18,667 nt of DNA from a virus (taxonomy: Duplodnaviria > Heunggongvirae > Uroviricota > Caudoviricetes), in the IMG/VR virus record IMGVR_UViG_2563366869_000001, one strand, 5' to 3'. This document shows, piece by piece, positions 1,165 to 18,667 of the stretch (positions within the stretch are counted from its first letter, which is position 1; each line of letters begins with the position of its first letter). Under the pieces are notes generated by a model that had not been told where the DNA came from, made no database searches, and saw only the letters and a list, made by a program, of their open reading frames with translations. Both the position numbers and the translations under genes were made by a program.

Positions 1165-1391
1165 TTTCTTTCCTCTGTTATGCCATCACCCGCGCTCACC
1201 TGGACAGTATGCAGCGGAGACTGAAGCGCCGCAATGCAAGCTTGCCGTGTTGTGAGGTAAGGAGATTTTGGCTTGGTTGGATCTTTACGTGTTGCCTGTA
1301 GGCGGCCTGTTCGTATCCAGTTGGTGGCGGTTGGTCTGGATATCTTAAGAAACTGACAGGCCTCATCGAGTGTGAGGCTGTATGGCTCCAT
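1020..1391 (-). CDS. xis: Excisionase-like HTH protein (Xis/AlpA-type), overlapping the int start by about 48 codons
   Basis: Start chosen at [29 protein letters not shown] (HTH-like) with TAATG overlap to the upstream gene; 3' end overlaps int in another frame. True C-terminus uncertain; could be shorter or a pseudogene. Confidence 0.6.
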
Positions 1392-2585: not shown

Positions 2586-2678
2586 TTTGTTCTCCACGTA
2601 TATGCACTGCACCGCGCTGAATTCTGGTAAAAGGAAGCCCTCACCATCCGGTGATTATTGAGTTAATTACGTTTCCAT

Positions 2679-2700
2679 AAATGCCCCCGCAGGGGCATTT
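2679..2700 (-). other. Intergenic stem-loop (9-bp stem AAATGCCCC/GGGGCATTT, 4-nt loop) between yfdQ-like and yfdR-like genes
   Basis: Perfect inverted repeat seen directly; no strong U-tract on either strand, so more likely an RNA processing or stability element or attenuator than a strong terminator. Confidence 0.3.
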
Positions 2701-2712
2701 GCAGTAATGAAA

Positions 2713-3537: not shown

Positions 3538-3602
3538 AATAAGTCCTCACTATATAAAGATATTCAGTGATGAGATAAATAATCAGTTTATTACGAACGA
3601 TA

Positions 3603-3965
3603 TTAACGACCTGCTGCGCGGAGTTTTCCGTCAGGTTCACCGGCAAGAGTCAGTAATTGTCCCTGGTCTTCCTGCAGAATAGTCAGGCGACCACCGCGAT
3701 TGACATACATCGGCGTTTCGGTGGTGTCTTCTTCGGAAATTTTCCCGCGGTTAGTCGGGCGAATATATGAGAGTTTGTGTTTGATTTTCACACGGTTCTC
3801 ATCAAATGGTTCGATTTCCAGGTTGAGTGAGACCTTACCTTTGGTTTTCGTGTTCATCACACCGGAAGCGACTTCACTGAGAACTGCGCCGATTTTGGTT
3901 TCAAATACGCCGCCGTCCAGCTCCCCGATAAATGCCTGCACATCAGTACTGCGTTCGCTAGCCAT
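3603..3965 (-). CDS. YfdP-like small protein (120 aa)
   Basis: Start assigned to ATG 3965..3963 (MASERSTDVQ...) preceded by SD GAGGAG at 7-nt spacing; the longer upstream extension in the ORF track has non-protein-like composition. Confidence 0.75.
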   Translation of the reverse strand: MASERSTDVQAFIGELDGGVFETKIGAVLSEVASGVMNTKTKGKVSLNLEIEPFDENRVKIKHKLSYIRPTNRGKISEEDTTETPMYVNRGGRLTILQEDQGQLLTLAGEPDGKLRAAGR

Positions 3966-4013
3966 TTTGCTGCTCCTCATCATATCGACCCTGCAAGGCC
4001 GATTAGTTTCTCC

Positions 4014-4102
4014 ACAAAACAGAGAAGAACACCTGTGGTGGCCGCCGCCCGGATGGATTGGGTTATGAGCCCGTCGTCCGGTGATGCTCTTCTCTGTTTT
4101 GT
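4014..4102. repeat. 15-bp perfect inverted repeat (ACAAAACAGAGAAGA / TCTTCTCTGTTTTGT) enclosing a 59-bp GC-rich segment
   Basis: Arms at 4014..4028 and 4088..4102 are exact reverse complements; lies in a non-coding leader upstream of the leftward operon. Confidence 0.7.
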
Positions 4103-4110
4103 AAAAAGGA

Positions 4111-4147
4111 CGGTACCAGCCGGAAGCAAGGGTACAAGCTGGTACCG
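4111..4147. repeat. 10-bp inverted repeat (CGGTACCAGC / GCTGGTACCG) with 17-nt loop
   Basis: Seen directly at 4111..4120 and 4138..4147; adjacent to three GGTGCC direct repeats (4175..4197) and a GCCTGG/CCAGGC stem (4195..4219). Confidence 0.6.
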
Positions 4148-4373
4148 CCAGGACTACACACAGCATAAAGTTGTGGTGCCGGGTGCCTCCCGGTGCCTGG
4201 CGAAGGTTGCACACCAGGCGGGTGGGTATCCACAGAAGGTCGACTGTCAGCCTCAACCTTAACCCGCGTGCGCTGAGCCGCATTCACCACAACGCTAAGG
4301 ATTCTCTCTGGTTGAAAATACTTAGCTGTTATGTGCCTGCTTTTAGCCACATCAGGCGAGGTGGACCTGGTTA

Positions 4374-4421
4374 TTCCCCAACAACAAGGATTCGGTTAAT
4401 CTGGATATCCCCAACAACAAT
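4374..4421 (+). repeat. Two direct copies of TCCCCAACAACAA spaced 34 bp apart, immediately upstream of the orf164 start
   Basis: Exact 13-mer at 4374..4386 and 4408..4420; the second copy ends about 14 nt before the candidate GTG start. Confidence 0.6.
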
Positions 4422-4434
4422 AAGAGTATTCAAT

Positions 4435-4950
4435 GTGATCGCTGAATTAACGGCAGCAATGACGGCTATTCGTGAAACAGCCCAGATTGCAAAACTAATG
4501 AACGAGGCAAAAACTCAAGCTGAAGTAAATGCGGCTATTGGTGAGCTGAACTCAAAGCTTGCGTCTATTCAGCGCGAATGCGTGTCTCTCGTTGAACTGG
4601 TGGGCTCTTATCAAGAAATAAATGCTTCTCTCAAAGCTAAAATTGCAGAATTCGAAAACTTTGAGGCTCAGACGGAAGGCTATATCCTTAACCAACTTGA
4701 GTCGGGTACTTTTGTATACTCGAAGGAGGTAATCGTGAACGGTGGCAGCATAACCATGCATCTTTGCCCAAAATGTTTTGGACAAAAGATAGTATCGATA
4801 CTTCAACCATTCCCGGTTAGCGAAGATGAGCTTTTTCATAAAAGCAGGTGCCTCCACTGTGAAAATAAGTTTCTGATGAATAAAAATCCGGATTACGTAT
4901 CGCCTCCATCCATTGAGGAGTTGTCCAGAAAACTTAACGGCAATCTGTAG
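4435..4950 (+). CDS. Hypothetical protein: N-terminal coiled-coil-like region plus C-terminal C4 zinc-ribbon (CPKC-x24-CLHC); convergent to cI
   Basis: Protein-like composition begins near GTG 4435 (AAGAG SD at 8-nt spacing) or ATG 4459; the upstream part of the track ORF (from 4171) is Arg/His/Trp-rich and GC-rich, so likely non-coding. Start is uncertain. Confidence 0.6.
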   Translation: MIAELTAAMTAIRETAQIAKLMNEAKTQAEVNAAIGELNSKLASIQRECVSLVELVGSYQEINASLKAKIAEFENFEAQTEGYILNQLESGTFVYSKEVIVNGGSITMHLCPKCFGQKIVSILQPFPVSEDELFHKSRCLHCENKFLMNKNPDYVSPPSIEELSRKLNGNL

Positions 4951-4987
4951 ATTACTACTGTTGTGGATATCCAGATTGTTAAAGAGC

Positions 4988-5012
4988 TAAGCGTCCTGTA
5001 GGGCGCTTTTTT
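4988..5012 (+). terminator. Rho-independent terminator downstream of orf164
   Basis: Stem AGCGTCC/GGGCGCT with 4-nt loop followed by TTTTTT, 38 nt after the TAG stop at 4948..4950; oriented for plus-strand transcripts only. Confidence 0.65.
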
Positions 5013-5094
5013 GTTGCTAACGAATCATCCTGGACTTCATATGCCCCAGGCGGCTACTTCGTGGGCGTCCTGCCTGTTCGTTATCTTTGATATA

Positions 5095-5124
5095 AAATCT
5101 AACTTAACTTAGTTATCATGACAA
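5095..5124 (-). promoter_or_regulatory. Candidate pL-like leftward promoter with overlapping operator motif AACTTAGTT
   Basis: On the minus strand: -35 TTGTCA (5124..5119), 18-bp spacer, -10 TAGATT (5100..5095); the 9-mer AACTTAGTT (5106..5114) in the spacer recurs at the pR side (5883..5891). By-eye prediction. Confidence 0.35.
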
Positions 5125-5177
5125 GAGAAAACACCAAACTTTTCTTGGTTCGGTGCCTTAGTTAGAGAAGAGAGGTC

Positions 5178-5804
5178 TTAGAGTTCGTATTGAACTCCTT
5201 TGACTACACCAATGATAAGGCAATTACCATTGATAGGGATGTTGGGATACCGAGGATTTAATGGCACTAAAAACTTTTGAGGGCCATCGATGACTAATTT
5301 TTTTACTGTAGCTTCGTTTGTTCCATCAAGTCGAGCGATGACTATTTTTCCATGACGAGGTTCTGCATCTGGATCTACAATCACTGTTGCGCCTTCTGGT
5401 ATTGTTGGGAGGCCATTAGGGTTAGTCATGGAGTCACCTTTAACCTCTAATGCAAATGAGTTATCACCAACCTTTAATGATGTATCTACCCACTTGTCCA
5501 CTTCACTAAACACTTCTGCTGCCCTGCACTCAGTAAACTGCCCAGCCTGAACCCACGATATTACAGGAACTCTGCGCATGTTTGTGACGAGTTTGCCTTC
5601 AAACTCAGCACCGTAAAGAATGTAATCTATTGACGTATTGAAGAACTTCGCTAATTTCGAAAGTGCCTCCCCGCCAGGGGTATTGATGTCTTTCTCCCAG
5701 TACCCCACAGCAACGTCGCTTACTCCACAAAATTTACCCAATTCTTTCTGGGACGTTCTGGTAACTCTTCTCAGAGCTTTTATACGCTGACCAACCGTTT
5801 CCAT
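5178..5804 (-). CDS. CI-like prophage repressor (N-terminal HTH plus C-terminal LexA/S24-type autopeptidase domain)
   Basis: 208-aa ORF; HTH near QKELGKFCGVSDVAVGYWE; C-terminal region with Ser (GDSM) and Lys (TVKKL) spaced as in the S24 catalytic dyad; divergent from a cro-like gene. Confidence 0.9.
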   Translation of the reverse strand: METVGQRIKALRRVTRTSQKELGKFCGVSDVAVGYWEKDINTPGGEALSKLAKFFNTSIDYILYGAEFEGKLVTNMRRVPVISWVQAGQFTECRAAEVFSEVDKWVDTSLKVGDNSFALEVKGDSMTNPNGLPTIPEGATVIVDPDAEPRHGKIVIARLDGTNEATVKKLVIDGPQKFLVPLNPRYPNIPINGNCLIIGVVKGVQYEL

Positions 5805-5826
5805 AGGAGCACCATTTCTTTAATCG

Positions 5827-5891
5827 CTAAGTAATCTTAGTTTTTATTGACCAAAGATAGATTTGTAATTAGCATCTAACAAAACTTAGTT
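5827..5891 (+). promoter_or_regulatory. Immunity-region operator/promoter (pR-like; pRM probably overlaps on the opposite strand)
   Basis: Palindrome CTAAGTAATCTTAG (5827..5840); -35 TTGACC (5847..5852), 17-bp spacer, -10 TAGCAT (5870..5875); AACTTAGTT at 5883..5891; cro SD GGAGGG follows. Confidence 0.5.
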
Positions 5892-5901
5892 TGGAGGGCG
5901 T

Positions 5902-6102
5902 ATGACAACTGACGATATCGAAAGCTACTTCGGCAGTATTGAGAAAGTTGCTGCTTTTTTCGGCATAACAACTGAAGCCGTTTATCAGTGGCGAAACCGT
6001 CCGGGCCAGTTAATTCCAAAAGGACGTGCAGCAGAAGCTGCATATAGAACTTGCGGACGGTTGCCATTTAAACCTGAGCTTTATGAAAAATCTAATGGAT
6101 AA
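5902..6102 (+). CDS. Cro-like small HTH regulator (YdaS-like)
   Basis: 66-aa ORF divergent from cI; HTH-like VAAFFGITTEAVYQWRN; strong SD GGAGGG. Confidence 0.85.
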   Translation: MTTDDIESYFGSIEKVAAFFGITTEAVYQWRNRPGQLIPKGRAAEAAYRTCGRLPFKPELYEKSNG

Positions 6103-6691
6103 ATCGATTAACAGAAACCACAGAACGATGAGGCTAACCGTGGGTAAGCATCACTGGAAAGTAGAAAAACAGCCTGAGTGGTACGTGAAAGCTGTCAGAA
6201 AAACTATCGCAAAGTTGCCGGGTGGTTACGCTGAAGCAGCTGACTGGCTGGATGTAACAGAGAACGCATTATTTAACCGCCTTCGTGCCGATGGCGATCA
6301 GATTTTCCCGCTGGGATGGGCAATGATTTTGCAACGTGCTGGTGGAACTCACTTCATTGCTGACGCAGTGGCGCAGTCTGCAAATGGCGTCTTTGTGTCT
6401 CTTCCTGACGTCGAGGATGTGGACAACGCCGATATTAACCAGCGCCTGCTGGAAGTCATTGAACAGATCGGCAGTTATTCAAAACAGATTCGTTCAGCAA
6501 TTGAAGACGGTGTAGTGGAACCGCATGAGAAGACAGCAATTAACGACGAGCTGTACCTCTCAATTTCGAAGCTGCAGGAGCATGCAGCACTGGTCTACAA
6601 AATTTTTTGCATTTCAGAAAGTAATGACGCCCGCGAGTGTGCAGCTCCGGGCGCCGTGGCGTGTCGTGACTGTGGAGAAACTAACGCATGA
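6083..6691 (+). CDS. YdaT-like protein (CII-analog regulator family, from memory)
   Basis: ORF immediately after cro, overlapping its end; start ambiguous between ATG 6083, ATG 6095 and a later Met; followed by an ATGA-coupled downstream gene. Confidence 0.7.
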
Positions 6692-7026
6692 ACAGTTTAA
6701 CAACACACTACCGTCGCTCGCAACTGATTGCGCTTCCTGTACCGGGTGGAAAAGCGAAGGTGGAATATTGCTATGCAGTGAATGTACCAGGTGACAGGGA
6801 AATTGTAACCCACAGCTTTGCAGAGTGGGCTGTGGGTGATTTCAACCGGCAGAAGGAGACAGTCCTTTGCGACAAGTTAACCGCTGGTTCAAAGATCACT
6901 ACGGAGTACCCGTCAGAGTCATTCGTTGGGAGCCGGAAACACAACGGGTTATCTACCTCCGCGAAGGCTATGAGCATGAGTGCTTCAGCCCGCTCGAACA
7001 GTTTCGTCGTAAATTCAGGGAAATAG
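6688..7026 (+). CDS. Hypothetical protein (112 aa)
   Basis: ATG overlaps the ydaT-like stop (ATGA coupling); ends 9 nt before the SD of the O-like gene; no recognisable motif; overlapping alternative-frame ORFs exist. Confidence 0.45.
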
Positions 7027-7035
7027 AGGTCGGTC

Positions 7036-7992
7036 ATGAGCACTAAATTAACCGGCTATGTATGGGATGGTTGCGCTGCGTCAGGCATGAAGTTATCCAG
7101 CGTGGCAATTATGGCCCGCCTGGCTGATTTCAGTAATGACGAAGGTGTGTGCTGGCCATCAATTGAAACCATTGCACGCCAGATTGGCGCGGGGATGAGT
7201 ACCGTCAGAACGGCTATCGCACGGCTGGAAGCAGAAGGCTGGTTAACGCGTAAGGCGCGTCGCCAGGGTAACCGCAATGCGTCGAATGTTTATCAGCTTA
7301 ACGTTGCGAAGCTTCAGGCAGCGGCATTTTCTCAACTGTCAGATTCTGACCCGTCAAAATCTGACCCGTCAAAATCTGTCCCGTCAAAATCTGTCCCGTC
7401 AAAATTTGATGCGTCGAAATCTGGTAAAAAAGCGGGTTTTCACCCGTCAGAATCTGGCGGGGATCCGTCAGTAAAATCAAAACATGATCCGTCAGATAAA
7501 AAAACTTCTCGTCCGGACGCTTCGCAACCGGACACGCAGACGGATGAACAGGATTTTTTAACTCGCCATCCTGATGCGGTTGTATTCAGCCCTAAAAAGC
7601 GCCAGTGGGGGACGCAGGATGATTTGACCTGCGCACAGTGGCTCTGGAAAAAAATCATCGCCCTGTACGAGCAGGCTGCCGAATGTGACGGCGAGGTGGT
7701 TCGTCCCAAAGAACCGAACTGGACAGCCTGGGCAAACGAAATTCGCCTGATGTGTGTGCAGGATGGTCGTACTCACAAACAAATCTGCGAGATGTACAGC
7801 CGCGTCAGCCGCGATCCGTTCTGGTGCCGTAACGTGCTCAGCCCGTCGAAGCTGCGGGAAAAATGGGATGAGCTTTCCCTGCGCTTATCGCCGTCCGTCA
7901 GCACGTACACAGAAAAACGCGAAGACCCGTACTTCAAAGCCAGTTACGACAATGTGGACTACAGCCAGATCCCGGCAGGATTCAGGGGGTGA
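7036..7992 (+). CDS. Replication initiator, lambda O-like (N-terminal HTH; origin iterons inside the gene)
   Basis: 318-aa ORF with SD GAGG; N-terminal HTH-like segment (PSIETIARQIGAGMSTVRTAIARLEAEGWL); the DPSKS/VPSKS peptide repeats are encoded by DNA iterons, as the lambda ori is within O. Confidence 0.8.
   Translation: MSTKLTGYVWDGCAASGMKLSSVAIMARLADFSNDEGVCWPSIETIARQIGAGMSTVRTAIARLEAEGWLTRKARRQGNRNASNVYQLNVAKLQAAAFSQLSDSDPSKSDPSKSVPSKSVPSKFDASKSGKKAGFHPSESGGDPSVKSKHDPSDKKTSRPDASQPDTQTDEQDFLTRHPDAVVFSPKKRQWGTQDDLTCAQWLWKKIIALYEQAAECDGEVVRPKEPNWTAWANEIRLMCVQDGRTHKQICEMYSRVSRDPFWCRNVLSPSKLREKWDELSLRLSPSVSTYTEKREDPYFKASYDNVDYSQIPAGFRG
7345..7419. repeat. Origin-type iterons: four tandem 15-bp repeats TCTG(A/T)CCCGTCAAAA plus a degenerate fifth; further CCGTCAG copies to about 7500, then an A-rich tract
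   Basis: Exact tandem copies at 7345, 7360, 7375, 7390; degenerate copy at 7405; embedded in the O-like gene. Confidence 0.8.
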
Positions 7993-7994
7993 GC

Positions 7995-8483
7995 ATGAGT
8001 CTTTTGAATGACGTTCAGAAATTCATTGAAGCCCATCCGGGCTGTACTTCCGGAGACATTGCGGATGCTTTTGCAGGTTACTCACGGCAGCGCGTTCTGC
8101 AGTCAGCAAGCAAGTTACGTCAGAGTGGGCGTGTGGCTCACCGTTGTGAAGGAGATACACGCAGACATTTCCCGCGCCTGACTGAGAGAGCGCAGGATCC
8201 GGAACCACAACCAGTTCGTGAAACCAGACCTGTGCGCAATTTCTATGTCGGCACTAACGACCCGCGGGTGATTTTGTGCCTGACCCGCCAGGCGGAAGAA
8301 CTGGAGTCCAGGGGCTTATACCGTCGTGCTGCAACGGTGTGGATGGCGGCATTCCGTGAAAGCCACTCCCAGCAAGAGCGAAACAATTTTCTTGCGCGTC
8401 GTGAGCGGTGTTTACGGAAAAGCAGCAAGCGCGCTGTATCGGGTGAAGAGTGGTATCTGTCAGGGAATTACGTGGGGGCTTAA
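7995..8483 (+). CDS. Hypothetical protein (162 aa) in the position of lambda P; possible N-terminal winged-helix
   Basis: ATG 7995 with SD GGGGGTGA, overlapping the O-like stop; Arg-rich C-terminus; no helicase-loader motifs recognised. Confidence 0.65.
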   Translation: MSLLNDVQKFIEAHPGCTSGDIADAFAGYSRQRVLQSASKLRQSGRVAHRCEGDTRRHFPRLTERAQDPEPQPVRETRPVRNFYVGTNDPRVILCLTRQAEELESRGLYRRAATVWMAAFRESHSQQERNNFLARRERCLRKSSKRAVSGEEWYLSGNYVGA

Positions 8484-8809
8484 TGACGACGTTAACTCAA
8501 TGCCAGCAGCAGGTGCTGGATATGCTGATTTCTTACCAGAAAGAACGTGGCTTCCCGCCAACCAATCAGGAGGTGGCTACCATGCTGGGATACCGTTCAG
8601 TGAATGCAGCGGTGGAGCATCTTCGCGCACTGGAGAAAAAAGGCGTCATCACGATAAAGCGTGGCGTGGCCCGGGGCATCACGCTTCATACCGCGGTGAA
8701 GGACGACGACAGCGAGGTGGCCGGGATTATCCGCGCACTGCTTGCTGGTGAGGAAAACGCCAGGCTGCGTGCAGCCCACTGGTTACATGAGAGGGGGCTG
8801 AAAGTATGA
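8483..8809 (+). CDS. LexA-like N-terminal DNA-binding-domain-only protein (108 aa), no S24 peptidase domain
   Basis: MTTLTQCQQQVLDMLISYQKERGFPPTNQEVATMLGYRSVNAAVEHLRALEKKGVITIKRGVARGITL aligns nearly residue-for-residue with the E. coli LexA N-terminal domain ([65 protein letters not shown]), from memory; TAATG coupling upstream, ATGA coupling to rusA. Confidence 0.8.
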   Translation: MTTLTQCQQQVLDMLISYQKERGFPPTNQEVATMLGYRSVNAAVEHLRALEKKGVITIKRGVARGITLHTAVKDDDSEVAGIIRALLAGEENARLRAAHWLHERGLKV

Positions 8810-9195
8810 AGCTGATTCTGCCTTTTCCACCCAGCGTGAACACCTACTGGCGACACCCCAACAAAGGGGCATTTGCTGGTAAGAGCCTGATAAGCGAGGC
8901 GGGGCGAAAATTCCAGAGTGCGGCGTGCACAGCAATAGTTGAGCAGTTACGTCGTCTGCCGAAACCAACGTCGGCACCTGCTTCAGTGGAGATCGTGTTG
9001 TTTCCCCCGGATAACCGGATCCGCGATCTGGACAACTATAACAAGGCGCTGTTTGACGCCCTGACCCACGCGGGTGTGTGGGAAGACGACAGCCAGGTGA
9101 AAAGAATGCTGGTGGAGTGGGGACCGGTTATCCCGGAAGGGAAGGTCGAGATCACTATCAGTAAGTACGAGAAAACGGCGGGTGCAGCCGCCTGA
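8806..9195 (+). CDS. rusA: RusA-family Holliday-junction resolvase
   Basis: 129-aa ORF; RusA-like motifs (LPFPPSVNTYWRH, DLDNYNKALFDALT) recalled from E. coli RusA. Confidence 0.85.
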   Translation: MKLILPFPPSVNTYWRHPNKGAFAGKSLISEAGRKFQSAACTAIVEQLRRLPKPTSAPASVEIVLFPPDNRIRDLDNYNKALFDALTHAGVWEDDSQVKRMLVEWGPVIPEGKVEITISKYEKTAGAAA

Positions 9196-9214
9196 TCAAG
9201 AGGAGAAACGAAGT

Positions 9215-10012
9215 ATGAATAATCTGATGGTCATTGATGGTATTGAAGTTCGTCGTGATGCTTATGGGCGTTACAGCCTGAACGATCTGCACAGGGCTGC
9301 CGGTTCTCTGGATAAGCATAAGCCTGCATTCTGGCTCCGCAATGAGCAAACTGAACGTTTAATAAGCGAGTTGCAGATTTGCAACTCGGTCAATATAGAG
9401 CCAGTTAACGTTATTCGTGGCGGAAATAACCAGGGGACGTATGTCTGCAAAGAACTGGTGTATGCCTATGCAATGTGGATCAGCCCGTCATTCCATCTGA
9501 AGGTGATCCGTACTTTCGATATGGTAACCAGCGCATCGGAAAAATTATCCGGGCAGGCTGCTGACAAGATGCAGGCTGGCGTGATTCTGCTGGACTTTAT
9601 GCGCCGGGAGTTAAACCTGTCTAACTCTTCAGTGCTTGGTGCCTGTCAGAAACTCCAGGAGGCTGTTGGCTTACCGAATCTGGCACCGCGCTATGCCATT
9701 GATGCTCCTGCTGACGCGCCTGATGGCTCAAGCCGTCCCACGCTGTCACTGAGTGCACTGCTGAAGCAGTATGGTATCCGCCTGACAGCTAATCAGGCAT
9801 ATCACCAGATGGTGAAGCTGGGGATCGTCGAGCAGCGCGAACGATACAGCCGTACCGCGATTAACAACATCAAAAAATTCTGGTCGCTGACAGCGAAAGG
9901 CTGCATGTTCGGCAAGAACATCACCAGTCCCGCAAATCCGCGCGAGACGCAGCCGCATTTCTTCGAATCCCGATTCCCTGAGCTGTTAAAGCTGCTCGAT
10001 ACCGTTCATTGA
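9215..10012 (+). CDS. KilA-N domain protein (antirepressor-like)
   Basis: Start at ATG 9215 with SD AGGAGA; N-terminal KilA-N-like segment (IDGIEVRRDAYGRYSLNDLHRAAG...FWLRNEQTERLISEL). Confidence 0.75.
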   Translation: MNNLMVIDGIEVRRDAYGRYSLNDLHRAAGSLDKHKPAFWLRNEQTERLISELQICNSVNIEPVNVIRGGNNQGTYVCKELVYAYAMWISPSFHLKVIRTFDMVTSASEKLSGQAADKMQAGVILLDFMRRELNLSNSSVLGACQKLQEAVGLPNLAPRYAIDAPADAPDGSSRPTLSLSALLKQYGIRLTANQAYHQMVKLGIVEQRERYSRTAINNIKKFWSLTAKGCMFGKNITSPANPRETQPHFFESRFPELLKLLDTVH

Positions 10013-10013
10013 G

Positions 10014-11009
10014 GTGACCGTGAGAGCACTACTGACCCCTGAAATTGCCCCGCGTATGGGGATCGTATTGTTCAGGCCCGGTTCAGAGCTGATGCCCCTG
10101 TTTATGCAGGGGCGTGTACTGCTGGAGCCTGAGCCGGAGCATTATTCATCTTTCGCCAGTGGTGCCGTTCCCGCGGCATCACAACCGCTGGCGGATGATC
10201 CTGCCGTTCGGGCCGTGTTCCGTAATGAGGCAGTGATCCGTCGTGCTGGTGGGGTGGAATGTCTTGAAAGCTGGTTACTTCGTGAAAAAGGCTGCCAGTG
10301 GCCTCATTCCGACTGGCACAGCGAGAACATGACCACAATGCGACACGCGCCGGGCGCAATCCGTCTGTGCTGGCACTGCGATAATCAGTTACGTGATCAG
10401 TTCACGGAGCGGCTGGAATCAATGGCAACGGATAACTGTGCCCGTTGGGTGTTGTCTGTAGTCCGTCGGGATCTCGATTTTAATGATAACCATGCCGTGA
10501 CAATGCCGGAACTGTGCTGGTGGCTGGTTCGTAATGACCTGGCGGATGCCTTACCGGAAAGCGCAGCCCGTAAGGCACTGAGATTACCGAAGTCTGTTTT
10601 GCCGTCTGTCACCCGGGAAAGTGACCTTGTGCCTTCGGTTCCTGCCACCAGCATTATCCAGGATAAAGCGAAAAAGGTGCTGGCGCTGAAAGTGGATCCG
10701 GAGTCGCCGGAGTCTTTTATGTTACGCCCCAAACGTCGTCGCTGGGTTAATGAACAGTACACGCGCTGGGTTAAGACGCAGCCGTGTGCATGTTGTGGAA
10801 AGCCAGCTGATGATCCGCATCATCTGATAGGCCATGGTCAGGGTGGAATGGGTACAAAAGCGCATGACCTTTTTGGGCTGCCTTTGTGCAGAAAACACCA
10901 CGACGAACTGCATGCGGATACCGTGGCATTTGAAGAGAAGTATGGCTCCCAGCTGGAGCTGATATTTCGTTTTATCGATCGCGCACTGGCGATTGGTGTG
11001 CTGGCCTGA
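10014..11009 (+). CDS. DUF968-family protein (YdfU-like) with C-terminal Cys/His-rich HNH-like motif
   Basis: C-terminal [43 protein letters not shown]; sits immediately upstream of Q as ydfU does next to quuQ in Qin (from memory). Start uncertain (GTG 10014, GTG 10020 or a later ATG). Confidence 0.7.
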
Positions 11010-11026
11010 TTTTGTGGAGAAAGTTA

Positions 11027-11410
11027 ATGCGTGATATTCAGATGGTTCTTGAACGTTGGGGAGCGTGGGCGGCTAATAATCATGAAGATGTGACCTGGTC
11101 GTCCATTGCCGCCGGTTTTAAGGGATTAATTCCTTCAAAAGTAAAATCTCGCCCGCAATGTTGTGACGATGACGCGATGATCATTTGCGGGTGCATGGCC
11201 CGTCTGAAAAAGAACAACAGCGATTTGCACGATTTATTAGTAGATTATTATGTAGTCGGTATGACATTCATGTCACTGGCAGGTAAGCATTGCTGCTCTG
11301 ATGGTTATATCGGGAAAAGGTTACAGAAGGCTGAGGGCATAATTGAAGGGATGTTAATGGCATTAGATATCCGGTTAGAGATGGATATCGTTGTTAATAA
11401 CTCTAATTAA
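11027..11410 (+). CDS. Late-gene antiterminator Q (phage 82 / QuuD-type), 127 aa
   Basis: Start at ATG 11027 with SD GGAGA; Cys-rich region ([27 protein letters not shown]) characteristic of this Q family, from memory. Confidence 0.85.
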
Positions 11411-11425
11411 TATGCCAATTGTTTA

Positions 11426-11461
11426 CTAAAAATTATTAAAAATGGGGCGTTGAGACGCCCC
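11426..11461 (-). terminator. Rho-independent terminator for the porin transcript
   Basis: Stem GGGGCGT/ACGCCCC (11444..11461) followed on the minus strand by AUUUUUAAUAAUUUUU; the plus-strand side is A-rich, so it is unidirectional. Confidence 0.6.
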
Positions 11462-11600
11462 CAAAAATAAAGGGTAATATATAACAGAAGGTTTATATAG
11501 TTAGAAGCAAGGTTGTGCTTCTAAAGGAAGTGGCTTGAGGGAGCCACTTATATGTTGGGGAGGCAACGCCTCCCGCAACATATCTTTTTCGTAATCAGAT
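11462..11600 (-). ncRNA. Candidate sRNA or structured 3' UTR downstream of the porin gene (IpeX-like position)
   Basis: Three consecutive hairpins (11503..11522, 11528..11549, 11558..11574) between the porin stop and its terminator; in DLP12 the sRNA IpeX maps between quuD and nmpC (recalled, not verified). Confidence 0.3.
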
Positions 11601-12697
11601 TAGAACTGGTAAACCAGACCTACAGCAACGATGTCATCAGTGCTTACACCGAGTGCTTTAGTGAAGTCATTTTTGTCAAGCAGGTTGATTTTGTAATCAA
11701 CGAAAGTAGACATATTTTTGTTGAAGTAATAGGTTGCACCTACATCAACATATTTGACTAAGTCCTGATCGCCCCATACTCCAAGATCCTTACCTTTAGA
11801 TTGCAGGTAAGCAACGGACGGACGCAGACCGAAATCGAACTGATATTGTGCAACAGCTTCGAAGTTTTGGGCTTTATTAGCAACGAAGTGATCAGCAAAT
11901 ACAGTCATATTCTGGGTTTCAGAATAGGTAGTGGCCAGGTAAATGTTGTTAGCGTCATATTTCAGACCTGCGGCCCAAACTTCTGCATTTTTACCGGAAG
12001 CAAATACTTCAGGAAGAACTTTCCCTGCATTAACTTGAGTGTCGGTACGATCAGATTTCGCATAAGTTGCACCGATACCGAATCCTTCGTATTCATAGGT
12101 AGCAGAGAAACCGAAGCCATCACCGTTACCTTCAGTGTAGTTATCGAAATCGCTACGATCGTTTTTGCCTTGGTACTGAGCAGCAAAGTTCAGACCATCA
12201 ACCAGACCAAAGAAGTCGTTGTTACGATAGGTTGCAACACCAGTGGTGCGACCAGTCATGAACACATCTGTTTGGGTCCAGGTATCGCCACCGAATTCTG
12301 GCAGAACGTCAGTCCACGCACCGATGTCGTATGCTACACCGTAGTTACGGCCGTAATCGATTGAGCCGTAGTCACCGAATTTCAGGCCTGCAAATGCAAG
12401 ACGGGTTTTGTCTTTGGAGGAACCTTGAGATTCAGCGCGGTTGCCTTTGAATTCATATTCCCACTGACCGAAACCAGTCAGTTGATCGTTGATTTGGGTT
12501 TCACCTTTGAAGCCAAGACGGGCATAAGTAGTATCACCATCATCTGCATCATTAGAGGAGAAGTAGTGCTTAGCATTAACTTTCCCGTACAGATCCAGCT
12601 TGTTACTGTCTTTATTATAAATTTCAGCTGCCTGAGCAGACATCGCCATCAGTACTGATGCAGCTACAGCAGAAATTGCCACTGTTAATTTTTTCAT
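11600..12697 (-). CDS. Phage-encoded OmpC-family general porin (Lc/NmpC-type), with signal peptide
   Basis: Start at ATG 12697 ([30 protein letters not shown]); C-terminal aromatic residue (…VGLVYQF); porin sequence characteristic throughout; encoded opposite to Q and the lysis genes. Confidence 0.92.
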
Positions 12698-13124
12698 CGT
12701 GAGCCCTTTTTTTGAACTATTATTAAAAAATGATGTCACTGCGCGATAAATATTCATCTAATCAATGTGATTATTTCAAGATGTAAGTTTTGGTTTCTCG
12801 TTTGATTTGTGAAGTAGATCTCTATTTTTATCTGAACTTTTTTCTATCGAATCCTATTCATAGCTCTTTGCTGAATAAAAATAAATCTATTAGCCAATTT
12901 ATATTAACGGCTGTTATTTATAAGCGCTCTATAATTTGAGGGTTCAATTTAAATAAGCTAAAAATAACACTGGAAATAATTTGTTGGTTATTTGTTGAGA
13001 TTTGCTTATGTATTTGTAGTGGTGTTTTCAATACTCGGTAGCATTCTCGCAAATATCATTTAGTGGTTTACGTACGTAAAAAATTGGTTATGCTGTTAAG
13101 AGTGGTTACTTCGTCACACAGCTT

Positions 13125-13158
13125 AAACCCGCCGTCGAGCGGGTTTTTCCATTTTTTG
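13125..13158 (+). terminator. Strong rho-independent terminator 115 bp upstream of the holin; probable tR' target of Q
   Basis: Stem AAACCCGC/GCGGGTTT with 6-nt loop followed by TTCCATTTTTT; no ORF between it and the upstream AT-rich region, as for the lambda pR'-tR' short transcript. Confidence 0.7.
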
Positions 13159-13269
13159 AGTCTCGATATTAGCTGATAACCCAATACCTGAGTTATTCAC
13201 TGACTCCGAGTCTGTTACGTTTCGTAGTATTCCCTCAATTTACACCCGCTTTGTCTGCGAGGTGGGGTT

Positions 13270-13485
13270 ATGAAATCCATGGATAAGTTAACAACGGGTG
13301 TCGCCTATGGCACCTCAGCAGGTAGTGCCGGGTACTGGTTTTTACAGCTGCTAGATAAAGTCACGCCCTCACAGTGGGCGGCAATTGGAGTGCTGGGTAG
13401 CCTGGTATTTGGCCTGCTGACGTACCTGACAAACCTTTATTTCAAGATTAAAGAAGATAAGCGCAAGGCTGCGAGAGGTGAATAA
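13270..13485 (+). CDS. Class II holin (phage 21 S-type pinholin) with dual-start motif
   Basis: [26 protein letters not shown]... with two in-frame ATGs (13270 and 13279), two TMDs and a charged C-terminus; from memory near-identical to S21. Confidence 0.9.
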
Positions 13486-13982
13486 TGTCGCCATCATTAC
13501 GCAAGGCTGTAGCAGCTGCTATTGGTGGTGGGGCTGTTGCCATAGCGTCTGTGCTCATCACTGGTCCGAGTGGTGACGATGGTCTGGAAGGTGTCAGCTA
13601 CATACCATATAAAGATATTGTTGGTGTATGGACTGTATGTCACGGGCATACAGGAAAAGACATCATGCTCGGTAAAACGTATACCAAAGCAGAATGCAAA
13701 GCACTCTTGAATAAAGACCTTGCCACTGTCGCCAGACAAATTAACCCGTACATCAAAGTCGATATACCGGAAACAACGCGCGGCGCTCTTTACTCATTCG
13801 TTTACAACGTGGGTGCTGGCAATTTCAGAACATCGACGCTTCTTCGCAAAATAAACCAGGGCGATATCAAAGGCGCATGTGATCAGCTACGTCGCTGGAC
13901 ATATGCTGGCGGTAAGCAATGGAAAGGTCTCATGACTCGTCGTGAGATTGAGCGTGAAATCTGTTTGTGGGGTCAGCAATGA
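13485..13982 (+). CDS. SAR endolysin (lysozyme, GH24-type) with N-terminal signal-anchor-release segment
   Basis: Gly/Ala-rich weakly hydrophobic N-terminus ([20 protein letters not shown]) followed by lysozyme-like core; TAATG coupling to the holin. Confidence 0.9.
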
Positions 13983-14440
13983 ACAGAGTAACAGCGATTA
14001 TCTCCGCTCTGGTTATCTGCATCATCGTCGGCCTGTCATGGGCTGTTAATCATTACCGTGATAACGCCATTACCTACAAAGCCCAGCGCGACAAAAATGC
14101 CAGAGAACTGAAGCTGGCGAACGCGGCAATTACTGACATGCAGATGCGTCAGCGTGATGTTGCTGCGCTCGATGCAAAATACACGAAGGAGTTAGCTGAT
14201 GCGAAAGCTGAAAATGATGCTCTGCGTGATGATGTTGCCGCTGGTCGTCGTCGGTTGCACATCAAAGCAGTCTGTCAGTCAGTGCGTGAAGCCACCACCG
14301 CCTCCGGCGTGGATAATGCAGCCTCCCCCCGACTGGCAGACACCGCTGAACGGGATTATTTCACCCTCAGAGAGAGGCTGATCACTATGCAAAAACAACT
14401 GGAAGGAACCCAGAAGTATATTAATGAGCAGTGCAGATAG
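13979..14440 (+). CDS. Rz inner-membrane spanin (i-spanin)
   Basis: ATG overlapping the endolysin stop (ATGA); N-terminal TMD then coiled-coil-like periplasmic domain. Confidence 0.88.
14199..14381 (+). CDS. Rz1 outer-membrane lipoprotein spanin (o-spanin), embedded in Rz in the +1 frame
   Basis: Lipobox LVVVGC, Pro-rich mature region ([16 protein letters not shown]); SD GGAG 8 nt upstream; fully nested within Rz. Confidence 0.88.
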
Positions 14441-14471
14441 AGCTGCCCATATCGATGGGCAACTCATGCAA

Positions 14472-14765
14472 TTATTGTGAGCAATACACACGCGCTTCCA
14501 GCGGAGTATAAATGCCTAAAGTAATAAAACCGAGCAATCCATTTACGAATGTTTGCTGGGTTTCTGTTTTAACAACATTTTCTGCGCCGCCACAAATTTT
14601 GGCTGCATCAACAGTTTTCTCCTGTCCAATTCCCGAAACGAAGAAGTGATGGGTGATGGTTTCCTTTGGTGTTACTGCTGTCGGTTTGTTTCCAACAGTA
14701 AACGTCTGTTGAGCACATCCTGTAATAAGCATTGCCAGAGCGGCAGAAAACAACATTTTTTTCAT
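14472..14765 (-). CDS. bor: Bor lipoprotein (serum-resistance moron)
   Basis: Start at internal ATG 14765 (MKKMLFSAALAMLITGC, lipobox); sequence near-identical to lambda Bor from memory. Confidence 0.9.
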   Translation of the reverse strand: MKKMLFSAALAMLITGCAQQTFTVGNKPTAVTPKETITHHFFVSGIGQEKTVDAAKICGGAENVVKTETQQTFVNGLLGFITLGIYTPLEARVYCSQ

Positions 14766-15124
14766 CTTATTATCCTGCATTGTTAAAAACGGCAGAATCC
14801 TATGTGACAACAATTAAACGATAGTTAAATGGATTGATGAAAATTAAAACTATATAGGTGGATGCTCAGCCTATTGGAGGAGGGGGGCACTCAGAATCCT
14901 GTGGAATGAAATAAACCGCTCTTTCTGTCCATTACCCTTTTAGCTGCGCTGTATCGTCGCCGTATTCCCGCATTAACCATGACCGTAGCCCGACGGGGAA
15001 TTCCTTCTGCGTGAGTGTGCGGGAATAATCAAAAACGATGCACACCGGGTTTTACTGTGCTGACAGACGCAGGGTTACCCTCATAGTCGCTTTTCCGGTG
15101 CGATGGTGGAAGAAACCGGGATGT

Positions 15125-15319
15125 TTATTCATCATCACTTTGGATTGATGTATATGCTCTCTTTTCTGACGTTAGTCTCCGGCGGCAGGCTTCAATGACC
15201 CAGGCTGAGAAATTCCCGGACCCTTTTTGCTCAAGAGCGATGTTAATTTGTTCAATCATTTGGTTAGGAAAGCGGATGTTGCGGGTTGTTGTTCTGCGGG
15301 TTCTGTTCTTCGTTGACAT
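15125..15319 (-). CDS. Small ribbon-helix-helix (CopG/Arc-like) DNA-binding protein, 64 aa
   Basis: Basic N-terminal strand then two helices (TRNIRFPNQMIEQINIALEQ...NFSAWVIEACRRRL); SD GGGG upstream; last gene before the cos site. Confidence 0.6.
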   Translation of the reverse strand: MSTKNRTRRTTTRNIRFPNQMIEQINIALEQKGSGNFSAWVIEACRRRLTSEKRAYTSIQSDDE

Positions 15320-15479
15320 GAGGTTGCCCCGTATTCAGTGTCGCTGATTTGTATTGTCTGAAGTTTTTTTTACGTTAAGTTGATGCAGATCAATTAATAC
15401 GATACCTGCGTCATAATTGATTATTTGACGTGGTTTGATGGCGTAGATGCACGTTGTGACATGTAGATGATAATTATTA

Positions 15480-15700
15480 TCATTTTGCGGGTCCTTTCCG
15501 GCGATCCGACAGGTTACGGGGCGGCGACCTCGCGGGTTTTCGCTATTTATGAAAATTTTCCGGTTTAAGGCGTTTCCGTTCTTCTTCGTCATAACTTAAT
15601 GTTTTTATTTAAAATACCCTCTGAAAAGAAAGGAAACGACAGGTGCTGAAAGCGAGCTTTTTGGCCTCTGTCGTTTCCTTTCTCTGTTTTTGTCCGTGGA
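15480..15700 (+). other. cos packaging site (cosQ-cosN-cosB), lambda-type; cosN 12-nt cohesive-end sequence GGGCGGCGACCT at 15519..15530
   Basis: From memory, sequence across ...GGGTCCTTTCCGGCGATCCGACAGGTTACG|GGGCGGCGACCTCGCGGGTTTTCGCTATTTATGAAAATTTTCCGG... matches the joined right and left ends of lambda; immediately upstream of Nu1. Confidence 0.85.
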
Positions 15701-15707
15701 ATGAACA

Positions 15708-16253
15708 ATGGAAGTCAACAAAAAGCAGCTGGCTGATATTTTCGGTGCGAGTATCCGTACCATTCAGAACTGGCAGGAGCAGGGAATGCCCGTTCTGCGA
15801 GGCGGTGGCAAGGGTAATGAGGTGCTTTATGATTCTGCCGCCGTCATAAAATGGTATGCCGAAAGGGATGCTGAAATTGAGAACGAAAAGCTGCGCCGGG
15901 AAGTTGAAGAACTGCGGCAGGCCAGCGAGACAGATCTCCAGCCAGGGACTATTGAGTACGAACGCCATCGACTTACGCGTGCGCAGGCCGACGCACAGGA
16001 GCTGAAAAATGCCAGAGACTCCGCTGAAGTGGTGGAAACCGCATTCTGTACTTTCGTGCTGTCGCGGATCGCAGGTGAAATTGCCAGTATTCTCGACGGG
16101 ATCCCCCTGTCGGTGCAGCGGCGTTTTCCGGAACTGGAAAACCGACATGTTGATTTCCTGAAACGGGATATCATCAAAGCCATGAACAAAGCAGCCGCGC
16201 TGGATGAACTGATACCGGGGTTGCTGAGTGAATATATCGAACAGTCAGGTTAA
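15708..16253 (+). CDS. nu1: Terminase small subunit Nu1 (near-identical to lambda Nu1; NohA-type)
   Basis: 181-aa ORF MEVNKKQLADIFGASIRTIQNWQEQGMPVLRGGGKGNEVLYDSAAVIKWYAER... matches lambda Nu1 from memory with a few substitutions. Confidence 0.93.
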   Translation: MEVNKKQLADIFGASIRTIQNWQEQGMPVLRGGGKGNEVLYDSAAVIKWYAERDAEIENEKLRREVEELRQASETDLQPGTIEYERHRLTRAQADAQELKNARDSAEVVETAFCTFVLSRIAGEIASILDGIPLSVQRRFPELENRHVDFLKRDIIKAMNKAAALDELIPGLLSEYIEQSG

Positions 16254-16539
16254 CAGGCTACGGCATTTTGTCCGCGCCGGGCTTCGCTCACTGTTCAGGC
16301 CGGAGCCACAGACCGCCGTTGAATGGGCGGATGCTAATTACTATCTCCCGAAAGAATCCGCATACCAGGAAGGGCGCTGGGAAACACTGCCCTTTCAGCG
16401 GGCCATCATGAATGCGATGGGCAGCGACTACATCCGCGAGGTGAATGTGGTGAAGTCTGCCCGTGTCGGTTACTGGTGCTTTATGGCAGCGCACATCGAC
16501 AGGGTTTACAAATTTTGCCTGGGTCAATACATCTGGTGA
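16228..16539 (+). pseudogene. Terminase large subunit A, N-terminal fragment only (about 82 lambda-like codons, then unrelated read-through to a stop)
   Basis: [82 protein letters not shown] matches lambda gpA; homology ends at about 16472, after which the frame runs into tail-fibre sequence. Confidence 0.85.
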
Positions 16540-17404
16540 TACTTACGATATTTACGTTGCAATCGGAAATTATGCGACTGGTGTAAATATTCAATGGGAT
16601 TATACCAGTAATGCCAGCGTGACGATTCATACGTCACCAGCATATTCTGCTAATAAGCCGGAAGGGTTAACGGACGGTACAGTTTATTCACTCTATACGC
16701 CATCAGAGCAGTTTTATCCGCCTGGCGCACCAATCCCGTGGCCATCAGATACCGTTCCGTCTGGCTATGCCCTGATGCAGGGGCAGACTTTTGACAAATC
16801 TGCATACCCGAAACTTGCAGCCGCTTATCCGTCAGGCGTGATCCCTGATATGCGTGGCTGGACGATTAAGGGCAAACCTGCCAGTGGTCGGGCCGTATTG
16901 TCTCAGGAACAGGACGGCATTAAATCGCATACCCACAGCGCCAGCGCATCCAGTACGGATTTGGGGACGAAAACCACATCGTCGTTTGATTACGGCACTA
17001 AATCCACGAATAACACTGGTGCGCATACCCATAGTTTAAGTGGCAGCACGAATGCAGCTGGTAATCACAGCCATAGAGATGGCCGTCGATTTAACCCCAG
17101 TGTTTTTAAAGATACTTATCAATATGGTTATACAAGCTCAGGTCAAAATACCTGGGGTGTACAAGGCTCAGTAGGTATGTCTACGGGGTGGTTAGCGAAT
17201 ACCAGTACAGATGGTAATCATAGCCATTCACTGTCCGGCACAGCAGCATCTGCAGGTGCACACGCGCATACTGTCGGTATTGGTGCTCATACGCACTCCG
17301 TTGCGATTGGTTCACATGGACACACCATCACCGTTAACGCTGCTGGTAACGCGGAAAACACCGTCAAAAACATCGCATTTAACTATATTGTGAGGCTTGC
17401 ATAA
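16473..17404 (+). pseudogene. Side tail fibre (Stf) C-terminal fragment, about 310 codons, with no native start
   Basis: Ends ...[19 protein letters not shown] as lambda Stf does; His-rich HxH repeats typical of the Stf C-terminus; begins abruptly at the junction with the terminase fragment, in a different frame. Confidence 0.8.
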
Positions 17405-17979
17405 TGGCATTCAGAATGAGTGAACAACCACGGACCATAAAAATTTATAATCTGCTGGCCGGAACTAATGAATTTATTGGTGAAGGTGACGCATATATTC
17501 CGCCTCATACAGGTCTGCCAGCAAACAGTACCGATATTGCACCACCAGATATTCCTGCTGGCTTTGTGGCTGTTTTCAACAGTGATAAGGCATCGTGGCA
17601 TCTCGTTGAAGACCATCGGGGTAAAACGGTTTATGACGTAGCGTCAGGGGACGCGTTATTTATTTCTGAACTCGGTCCGTTACCGGAAAATGTTACCTGG
17701 TTATCGCCGGAAGGGGAGTTTCAGAAGTGGAACGGCACAGCCTGGGTGAAAGATGCAGAAGCAGAAAAACTGTTCCGGATCCGAGAGGCGGAAGAAACAA
17801 AAAACAGCCTGATGCAGGTAGCCAGTGAGCATATTGCGCCACTTCAGGATGCTGTAGATCTGGAAATCGCAACGGAGGAAGAAACCTCATTGCTGGAAGC
17901 CTGGAAAAAGTATCGGGTGTTGCTGAACCGTGTTGATACGTCAACTGCACAGGATATTGAATGGCCAGCACTGCCGTAG
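17404..17979 (+). CDS. tfa: Tail fibre assembly protein Tfa
   Basis: 191-aa [57 protein letters not shown]... matches lambda/Rac Tfa from memory; ATG overlaps the stf stop. Confidence 0.88.
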
Positions 17980-18076
17980 GGTAAAACATATAAATTCTAT
18001 AATTAGATGTATCTTTCCATTTACGGCAAGGAAGGGGGCTTGGAAGACGTAAAGCATCTCACACCGAGATTATTTT

Positions 18077-18667
18077 TTATATGTCAGGTGTCTGAAGTTT
18101 TGCTTTGGCTCTTAAAATGGTTTGCCGCGAGGTTTTGAATTCCCGGGCAATGGCACTTATACTTACACCTGACTTAATTCGTTCGAATACCACCTGTTTC
18201 TGTTCTTCATTTAACACAGGTGGTCGACCAAAACGTTTCCCTGCGCCGCGGGCTCTTACTATCCCGGAATGAGTGCGTTCAAGTAAAAGGTCTCGTTCAA
18301 ATTCAGCGACTGCTGAAATTACGTGCATCATCATTTTTCCTGTTGGACTGGTCAGGTCAATGCCCCCCAATGCTAAGCAATGCACTCTGATACCTGTTTC
18401 GGTCAGTTGTTCCACTGTTTTCCTGATATCCATTGCATTACAACCAAGGCGATCCAGTTTTGTCACAATCAATTGATCACCACATTTCAGGCGAGCAAGC
18501 AACCGGTTAAAACCAGGACGCTCACTGGTTGCTGCTGAGCCGCTAATGTGTTCTTCGATTATTTGCTGAGGTTTGATTTTAAAACCTGCACTTTCGATTT
18601 CCCGGCGTTGATTTTCGATGGTCTGATCCAGCGTTGATATCCGACAGTAAGCAAAAATTCGAGACAT
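18077..18667 (-). CDS. pin: Pin-family serine DNA invertase (PinR/PinQ-like)
   Basis: 196-aa ORF with resolvase/invertase N-terminal catalytic motif (YCRISTLDQ, Ser10) and C-terminal HTH; start codon is the last three bases of the window. Confidence 0.9.

Follow-up and report, generated by a model that had tools for sequence, protein, structure and literature searches.

In lambda dgal phages and cosmids, a cos site in cis is enough for packaging while a helper supplies the proteins, and short replicons are packaged as multimers; the DNA accepted by lambda ranges from about 78 to 105% of the lambda length, with the minimum at about 78%, as known from work of the Feiss laboratory and from cosmid practice. 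The subsites of cos were defined by Murialdo and Feiss, with R3 and the spacing between cosN and R3 being critical (PMC9026076), and cosQ is the subsite at which packaging is terminated (PMC4669245). cos-type PICIs exist in E. coli, and those of the EcCICFT073 group, which hijack their helper by Rpp-TerS, are packaged by the terminase of a lambda-like phage (PMC9026076). Passive prophages located between chromosomal cos sites are packaged by a helper terminase (PMC4669245), and in E. coli O157 Sakai the prophage Sp4 is packaged although it encodes no intact terminase; the enzyme apparently comes from Sp14, whose cos is identical (PMC2669165). The DLP12 prophage of E. coli K-12 (qsr'; nohD, aaaD, tfaD) carries a pseudogene of the large terminase subunit A, annotated as aaaD in MG1655. 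Its genes nu1, R and Rz function once they are recombined into lambda, and the crossovers cluster at cos (De Paepe et al., PMC3945230). Therefore, a reservoir role of such remnants is already documented.

The window, i.e. the whole stretch of 18,667 nucleotides analysed here, is a DLP12-family lambdoid prophage at argU and a young member of this family (nohD, aaaD family), as judged from its gene content and its locus. In the RefSeq genome of strain E15 the element adjoins tRNA-Arg (argU) and differs from the window by one mismatch and one 15-bp gap. It is flanked there by a 47-bp direct att repeat and measures 24,070 bp from att to att; since the window begins at the stop codon of int, the att sites lie outside of it. 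The E15 annotation comprises intD, CPS-53-like early-left genes, the LexA-family repressor and the Cro-like gene in the left part, followed by genes encoding the HTH replication protein, rusA, quuD, a porin, essD, rrrD, rzpD, iss and ylcI in the middle. On the right follow nohD, a truncated pseudogene of the large terminase subunit, a truncated phage tail protein and the tail-fibre assembly gene, and on the far right a Pin-type recombinase, ydfK, ynfT, a methyltransferase, a hydrolase and ompT. Comparison of the E15 and K-12 annotations revealed the same order of the late region, Q, porin, holin/lysozyme/Rz, bor, ylcI, cos and nohD. The features of the window are summarised in Table 1.

Table 1 Features of the window. 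Positions count from the first nucleotide of the window; A', truncated large terminase subunit; stf', C-terminal fragment of the side-tail-fibre gene.
Feature	Position	Strand	Basis or remark
IntD, tyrosine integrase, 387 aa	1–1164	(-)	Pfam Phage_integrase; E15 annotation; next to argU
Immunity switch	5178–6102	both	Pfam
S24-peptidase LexA-family cI-like repressor	5178–5804	(-)	Pfam Peptidase_S24 and HTH_3
Cro-like gene	5902–6102	(+)	Pfam P22_Cro
Replication initiator gene	7036–7992	(+)	Pfam HTH_36; array of 15-bp iterons inside
Iteron array	7323–7456		six to seven copies of 15 bp, within the initiator gene
cosQ, GGGTCCT	15489–15495	(+)	equals lambda bp 48473–48479; distance to cosN as in lambda
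cosN, 12-nt cohesive-end sequence GGGCGGCGACCT	15519–15530		equals lambda bp 1–12; flanking nick sites identical too
cosB	15568–15683	(+)	R3, I1/IHF region, R2 and R1
R3	15568–15583		lambda sequence
R2	15627–15642		lambda sequence; inverted
R1	15668–15683		lambda sequence
Nu1/NohD, small terminase subunit, 181 aa, intact	15708–16253	(+)	Pfam Phage_Nu1, E = 4e-101
A'	16228–16539	(+)	82 lambda-like codons and 21 out-of-frame codons; alignment to lambda and K-12
Deletion junction, TTA microhomology	16470–16472		A nt 246 joined to stf codon 632
stf', ~311 codons	16473–17404	(+)	Pfam Collar and Phage_fiber
tfa, tail-fibre assembly gene, intact	17404–17979	(+)	annotation of the identical E15 locus

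A preliminary description of the window had pointed out an immunity switch, functional-looking int and xis genes, an O-type origin and the absence of every head and tail gene. The immunity switch was indeed found, since both a repressor and a Cro-like gene have Pfam matches. The region around int (1–5082) has 99.8% identity to phage PhiR29_1 and the integrase has the expected domain, whereas the xis-like ORF has only a partial HTH_17 match, although the stretch is the same as in PhiR29_1 except for one SNP. The origin is of another kind than proposed: the replication gene encodes an initiator of the HTH_36 type with 15-bp iterons and not lambda O/P. The virion genes are lost as described, with the exception of stf', which is 99.9% identical to the 3' part of stf of strain ARS-C301, and the intact tfa.

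Across lambda bp -23 to +190, the window deviates from lambda at a single point, a G that is missing between R2 and R1. This G is also absent in PhiR29_1, in the complete prophage of ARS-C301 and in DLP12 and Qin of K-12; since its deletion is common to every natural element compared, we regard it as a natural polymorphism and not as a sign of decay. The spacing from cosN to R3 is unchanged compared to lambda. Judged by its sequence, the site is a lambda-type cos with respect to cosN, cosQ and cosB, and the close match to lambda that had been described before was thus corroborated, with a 1-bp polymorphism as the only deviation. The same applies to Nu1, which has an open reading frame with only two exchanges compared to lambda Nu1, A75T and L132I; they are located outside the recognition helix and the wing and are present in complete prophages also. 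At the matching position, E15 shares one annotated NohD accession (WP_000453587.1) with the complete prophages in ARS-C301 and 00-3076. The gene A uses the same GTG start as lambda, at 16228, and resembles lambda A up to codon 82 (16472/16473), from where a foreign frame leads to a stop at 16539. This is in line with the cut after about 82 codons noted earlier, and A' is annotated as a pseudogene in E15.

At the same argU site, E. coli ARS-C301 carries a complete prophage which is 99.9% identical to the window over positions 1–16472 and measures 44,661 bp from att to att. Between nohD and the Pin-type gene it holds A-W-B-C-D-E-FI-FII-Z-U-V-G-T-H-M-L-K-I-J-lom-stf-tfa, with an stf of 2.8 kb. 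A BLAST comparison of the window with this locus gave exactly two blocks, 1–16472 and 16470–18667, which overlap by the 3 bp TTA and correspond to positions 877–17332 and 37922–40119 of the ARS-C301 prophage; 20,589 bp are lost at the junction. Apart from this, the two sequences are distinguished by 6 SNPs, by an indel of 1 bp immediately upstream of cro and by one 15-bp iteron which the window has in addition, and in the colinear alignment no gene of the window was absent from the complete prophage. A second complete relative, 98.3% identical, was found at argU in 00-3076; its structure is as in ARS-C301, and the NohD and TerL accessions are the same. The phage record of PhiR29_1 (PV340556) covers 91% of window positions 1–15300 at 97.4% and has the same int region and the same type of cos/Nu1. 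Phages with PhiR names serve as a panel of plaque-forming temperate phages (PMC13190303, citing Brenes and Laub 2025), and PhiR29_1 itself may be among those plated.

These comparisons argue strongly that the window is derived from an ordinary lambda-like prophage which very probably lost its head and tail genes recently, in one illegitimate deletion of 20,589 bp mediated by microhomology. We infer the direction of the change, deletion and not repair of an already deleted element, from parsimony. Everything from codon 83 of the terminase gene A to codon 632 of stf would have been removed in this one event, and cos and Nu1 would be intact because they lie just left of the breakpoint, were not hit and had no time to decay. 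The preliminary description had mentioned the undeleted edges of a large deletion as its fallback, and this is what the window looks like: the complete ARS-C301 prophage minus one clean deletion.

The deleted form is rare. When the whole window was searched against 5,426 complete E. coli genomes, five of them matched over the full length at 99.8%, all from chicken isolates, and about 100 others shared a single stretch ending at 16472 that covers at least 87% of the window; two of these were checked and both were complete prophages. With junction queries of 120 nt and 200 nt, the exact junction was found in six of the 5,426 genomes (E14, E15, E16, E32, FDN-11 and GPEC1240), again all from chicken isolates, and a scan of IMG/VR for the junction pattern did not find it. 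The distribution of the junction form is tiny and clonal-looking. A second lambda-type A gene was not found in the six carriers, in which a 200-nt query (A nt 146–245 plus stf) matched one place per genome, so there is no resident matching helper. The divergence between the window and ARS-C301 amounts to 3.2e-4 per site (6 SNPs in 18.65 kb). At this divergence, 0.34 substitutions are expected in the 1,060-bp cos/Nu1 region (P(0) = 0.71) and 0.18 in Nu1 (P = 0.84), and none was observed; since so few are expected, the intactness of cos and Nu1 carries no information about selection. Likewise, the comparison of their conservation with the decay of flanking genes, which had been suggested as a check, has no power at 6 SNPs; the rest of the element has not decayed since the deletion either.

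Retention of cos and Nu1 as such is common in E. coli. A 774-bp cos–Nu1 query matched 8,991 places in 4,604 genomes, compared to 4,854 places in 3,427 genomes for the distal 1.4 kb of A, and ~45% of the cos–Nu1 copies in E. coli are thus without most of A. The junction type of K-12 DLP12 was found in 425 genomes, mostly K-12 derivatives. In other species of the Enterobacteriaceae, Nu1 homologues are nearly all followed by a full A, and most of 80 metagenome contigs with the Nu1 allele of the window carry a full A as well. A scan of species representatives for Nu1 returned mostly complete prophages in other Enterobacteriaceae and contamination by lambda control DNA and is uninformative on selection.

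The left breakpoint of the window, ending in GTGTCGGTTA (A nt 245–247), is found again in at least three further types of junction whose right partners differ; the site is thus recurrent rather than random. In the Qin remnant of strain S3 and in two IMG/VR contigs the right side starts with ACCGCGCTGAC (stf codon 665 of the PhiR29_1-type allele), and the metagenome contig L129 has the S3-type junction minus 45 nt. In strain LR-45 the right partner is TGGTGCTCATACG in the 3' end of stf and in strain E94 it is CCGGTGCGCC in lom. Near-copies of the left site GTCGGTTAT are present at the right sites (GTCGGTAT, GTCGGGTA, GCCGTAT and GGATTA), i.e. imperfect microhomologies of 6–9 nt, and microhomology thus accounts for much of the recurrence, to which selection may contribute. 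A second, stronger cluster is located at Nu1 nt 507 (window position 16214), 14 nt before the start codon of A, with at least nine different right partners which reach from A to beyond pin. These were counted in two closed genomes and in an IMG/VR scan for the 21-mer up to nt 507 with a non-cognate base behind it. The same scan design gave no match at Nu1 nt 497 and nt 517 and only divergent alleles, but no junction, at nt 527. The left-flank haplotypes differ among the junction classes at nt 507. A hairpin or palindrome was not found at the Nu1/A boundary, where the DNA fold z-score was 0.27.

Several candidate mechanisms for the breakpoints were considered and discarded. Gene conversion or recombination with a Qin-type remnant was rejected for the junction of the window, both sides of which are the ARS-C301 allele and not Qin. 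A deletion at quasi-sites of the serine invertase Pin was rejected as well, because there is only weak similarity and the crossover misses the central dinucleotide of an AAACC-NN-GGTTT-like site. Cleavage of a pseudo-cosN by terminase was not supported at the recurrent breakpoints, with a similarity of 6/16 at the Nu1 site and a negligible one at A nt 245, and Chi-like sequences there have the wrong orientation and position. Integration of a helper-embedded PICI into Nu1 was also considered; the targets named in PMC10111431 are other late genes, without mention of nu1.

The following behaviour is predicted for the element from its gene content. The cI-like S24 repressor would keep it quiescent, and SOS induction should lead to excision by IntD at the 47-bp att sites and to iteron-driven replication, together with Q-dependent late transcription that would include the lysis cassette, Nu1 and the A' stump. 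Lacking TerL, proheads and tails, the element alone would be a dead end, with neither cutting of cos nor formation of virions to be expected. Its cos should still be a valid substrate for a terminase of lambda specificity, and an infecting lambda-type phage could recombine with the element or package it, the latter only as a dimer.

How far the intact cos and Nu1 call for more than a recent deletion can be weighed with these data. The preliminary description had put forward a possible cos-type satellite. An evolved satellite would be maintained because it excises, replicates and is packaged preferentially by a lambda-type helper, like PICIs or P4. This was not supported, as the element is a colinear subset of a complete prophage, its junction is present in six of 5,426 genomes and its carriers have no second A gene. 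The element does possess Int, a switch of the SOS type, an origin with iterons, an intact cos and a TerS of its own, and a dimer of the 24.07 kb from att to att, about half of lambda, would fill a lambda-size head; moreover, E. coli does harbour cos-type PICIs, as stated above. Against this, a specificity switch of the Rpp type is not possible without any gene that the complete prophage lacks, the cosB is that of lambda, by which no preferential packaging is gained, and the full lysis cassette and the S24 repressor have been retained as in an ordinary prophage. Genes dedicated to a satellite life (redirection of packaging, remodelling of capsids, helper-responsive regulation) were not found, the extra sequence compared to ARS-C301 being the 15-bp iteron and 1 bp. 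Neither did the six genomes, all from a single host source, and the negative IMG/VR scan reveal a conserved family of reduced architecture across many strains, nor do the six carriers have a co-resident prophage with matching terminase and cos as in O157 Sakai. Since the element also differs from the complete form by only 3e-4 per site, we consider an evolved satellite extremely unlikely. An unadapted element which an infecting phage of lambda specificity packages incidentally, as a dimer or after recombination, is a different matter. Its cosQ, cosN and cosB are intact, its int region and replication module match PhiR29_1 and complete prophages, and the passive prophages and Sp4 mentioned above set precedents. 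A monomer of ~24.07 kb has a computed 49.6% of the lambda length and is far under the packaging minimum, so that dimers derived from concatemers (99.3%) would be required; in addition, the six carrier genomes have no resident helper and the xis-like ORF is recognised only in part. Taken together, we hold such occasional packaging for a tentative reading, with the odds somewhat against it. Helper-dependent packaging is thus mechanistically possible, but it would be incidental, and it is classical for any cos-bearing defective lambdoid prophage.

A recent deletion, as preferred here for the window, leaves the abundance of cos–Nu1 remnants in E. coli to be considered, for which a benefit to the host is conceivable: selection could keep cos–Nu1 as a recombination reservoir or as a TerS/cos decoy against superinfection by lambda-type phages. 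The excess of cos–Nu1 over distal A is what one would expect in this case, and the function of DLP12 nu1 in lambda fits as well. The Nu1 reading frame was open in 15 of 15 orphan copies examined, yet four orphan types lose the TerL-binding C-terminus of Nu1. Many independent deletions end 696–707 bp from cosN, just before the start codon of A; in the sample ascertained solely by cosN, however, Nu1 itself is not clearly poorer in breakpoints (3 in 506 nt) than the stretch just behind it and, therefore, no claim of selection for Nu1 is made. The ratio of non-synonymous to synonymous changes (N/S) in Nu1 was 8/18 in orphans and 23/137 in complete prophages, a crude comparison of non-independent counts (Fisher p = 0.048) which weakly suggests relaxation, if anything, and is not used as evidence. 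The deletion of the window, in any case, is too young for selection to have acted on it, and host-beneficial retention is judged improbable. That the clusters at Nu1 nt 507–518 and A nt 245–247 reflect selection for keeping cos and TerS and shedding TerL and the virion genes, with defective prophages of half a genome length travelling as dimers or interfering with a lambda-type terminase, would be a bolder explanation, and we regard it as highly improbable.

In sum, the element belongs to a known kind: it is a further defective prophage of the DLP12 type, already contained in RefSeq genomes, where its genes are annotated (nohD, truncated terminase). Its value is that of a clean and dated example of the first step in prophage domestication, in which one microhomology deletion strips the whole virion module and leaves lysis, immunity, replication, cos and cargo genes intact. 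If it were indeed packaged now and then by infecting phages, its cargo (porin, iss/bor, ompT region) would move occasionally, and one-step derivatives of this type would be a source of helper-mobilisable islands with iss/bor, porin and ompT. As a by-product, a proper census of the deletion endpoints that recur at the Nu1/A boundary may be worthwhile.

Among the closest known systems is K-12 DLP12, which shares with the window the argU site, the 47-bp att repeat and IntD, the order quuD, porin, essD/rrrD/rzpD, bor, ylcI, cos, nohD, truncated A and tail-fibre remnants, and an intact cos and Nu1. Unlike the window, it goes back to an independent deletion in which A ends at ~nt 308 (codon 102) and is joined to tfaD and not to stf; its immunity and replication region is gone and IS3 and IS5 are present, whereas the element described here keeps the repressor, cro, the initiator and the nin/Q region and is one deletion away from a complete prophage. 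Qin (nohA, stfQ, tfaQ, pinQ), of which a fuller form is present in S3, has the same right-hand arrangement of Nu1, (A'), stf', tfa, pin, ydfK and ynfT, and its A stump in S3 extends to the same nucleotide as that of the window (GTCGGTTA). Qin differs in its chromosomal locus and its stf allele, the breakpoint in stf being at codon 665 of the PhiR29_1-type gene in S3 and at codon 632 of the ARS-C301-type gene in the window, and in K-12 Qin A is almost wholly lost (A nt 9). Sp4 and Sp14 of O157 Sakai (PMC2669165) are the precedent for the proposal of helper-dependent packaging, since there, too, the cos of a defective lambdoid prophage matches that of a competent relative; in Sakai, however, the complementing prophages reside in the same cell, while the six carriers of the window's junction are without a second lambda-type A gene. 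The EcCICFT073-group PICIs are likewise integrated, have a cos and no virion genes. They encode Rpp, have a different cosB sequence by which the helper TerS is redirected, are induced by the helper and form conserved families; the element described here, in contrast, has the cosB of lambda, its own TerS, an SOS-type repressor, a lysis cassette and no gene beyond its complete parent. Lambda dgal phages and cosmids, finally, are laboratory constructs or rare products of aberrant excision, whereas the window is a natural prophage with an internal deletion.

A left deletion endpoint at nt 507 of Nu1, the gene of the small terminase subunit, lies between GATGAACTGATA and CCGGGG and was found recurrently, joined to at least nine different right partners ranging from the 3' end of the terminase large subunit gene A to beyond pin. 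The junctions carry imperfect microhomologies (GATA, GATA(A)CCG and CCG.GTTGCT), and no comparable endpoint was found in control scans 10 nt either side of nt 507. The left breakpoint of the window itself, at A nt 245-247 directly after GTGTCGGTTA, recurs in at least three other junction types, namely the S3-type of the cryptic prophage Qin, LR-45 and E94. Since the right-hand sites of these three carry near-copies of the left site (GTCGGTAT, GTCGGGTA or GCCGTAT), microhomology explains much of this recurrence.

Coordinates and loci of the junctions, polymorphisms and other features described in the text
Feature	Position	Loci
Recurrent endpoint at Nu1 nt 507	window 16214 (region 16200-16230), 14 nt upstream of where terminase A starts	L163, L164, L170-L182
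Shared breakpoint at A nt 245-247	window 16463-16473	L161, L167, L168, L129, L311, L312
In-frame A-stf fusion of 23CRST022	2356-3780	L162
15-bp iteron	window 7365-7379
1-bp indel	window 5895
bp-45 divergence beside cosN (IMG/VR)		L185-L303
tfa 3' end, Rfam match	window 17747-17945
tfa-end direct repeat	window 17823-17943 and L001 28579-28699	L001
Hydrolase gene and ompT, att-bounded element	28964-31588	L001
Hydrolase gene and ompT, PhiR29_1 (PV340556)	41655-44279	L007
Assemblies/contigs with probable lambda contamination		L014-L022, L025, L028, L029, L040, L046, L053, L145

The nohA-stfQ junction of K-12 Qin (L005; A nt 9 joined to ACCGCGCTGAC) and the S3-type junction (L161, Qin of E. coli S3; A nt 245 joined to ACCGCGCTGAC) have the same right endpoint. 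K-12 Qin looks like an S3-type remnant which lost 236 further bases, with the loss ending exactly at the old junction; this old junction forms the palindrome CGGTTAACCG. At the Qin locus of E. coli 23CRST022, about 1,049 nt of A were fused in frame by deletion to the 3' part of the side tail fibre gene stf, and the product is annotated in RefSeq as an intact "terminase large subunit family protein" of 475 aa.

Upstream, the window has one copy more of the iteron CCCGTCAAAATCTGT, located inside the replication-initiator gene, than strains E15 and ARS-C301, so that the putative origin is polymorphic in copy number of this repeat. Further, the window and E15 have an extra A compared to ARS-C301; it sits in the repressor/cro intergenic control region, 7 nt before the start codon of the cro-like gene.

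About one quarter of the IMG/VR contigs that have lambda cosN and the first ~45 bp of lambda are entirely divergent beyond bp 45. This is a mosaic boundary, at which the conserved cosN is followed by alternative cosB/TerS modules whose packaging specificities probably differ. Lambda sequence with 99-100% identity was also present in many non-enteric assemblies (Kitasatospora, Pseudomonas, Shewanella, Oceanobacillus, Chromatiales and others), in some cases as contigs of ~48.4 kb; most likely, this is contamination by control DNA or vector. The metagenome contig L145 terminates in an Illumina adapter (AGATCGGAAGAGC).

At the right end, the 3' end of the tail-fibre assembly gene tfa matches the Rfam family IS009 with 226.7 bits, and its last ~120 nt are directly repeated (88% identity) 2.75 kb downstream, the two copies flanking a cassette of pin, ydfK, ynfT and a methyltransferase gene. 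Two further genes within the att-bounded element are ompT and one for an alpha/beta hydrolase. Since both genes are found in the PhiR29_1 record as well, OmpT appears to be cargo of a DLP12-like phage that has been deposited as a phage genome.
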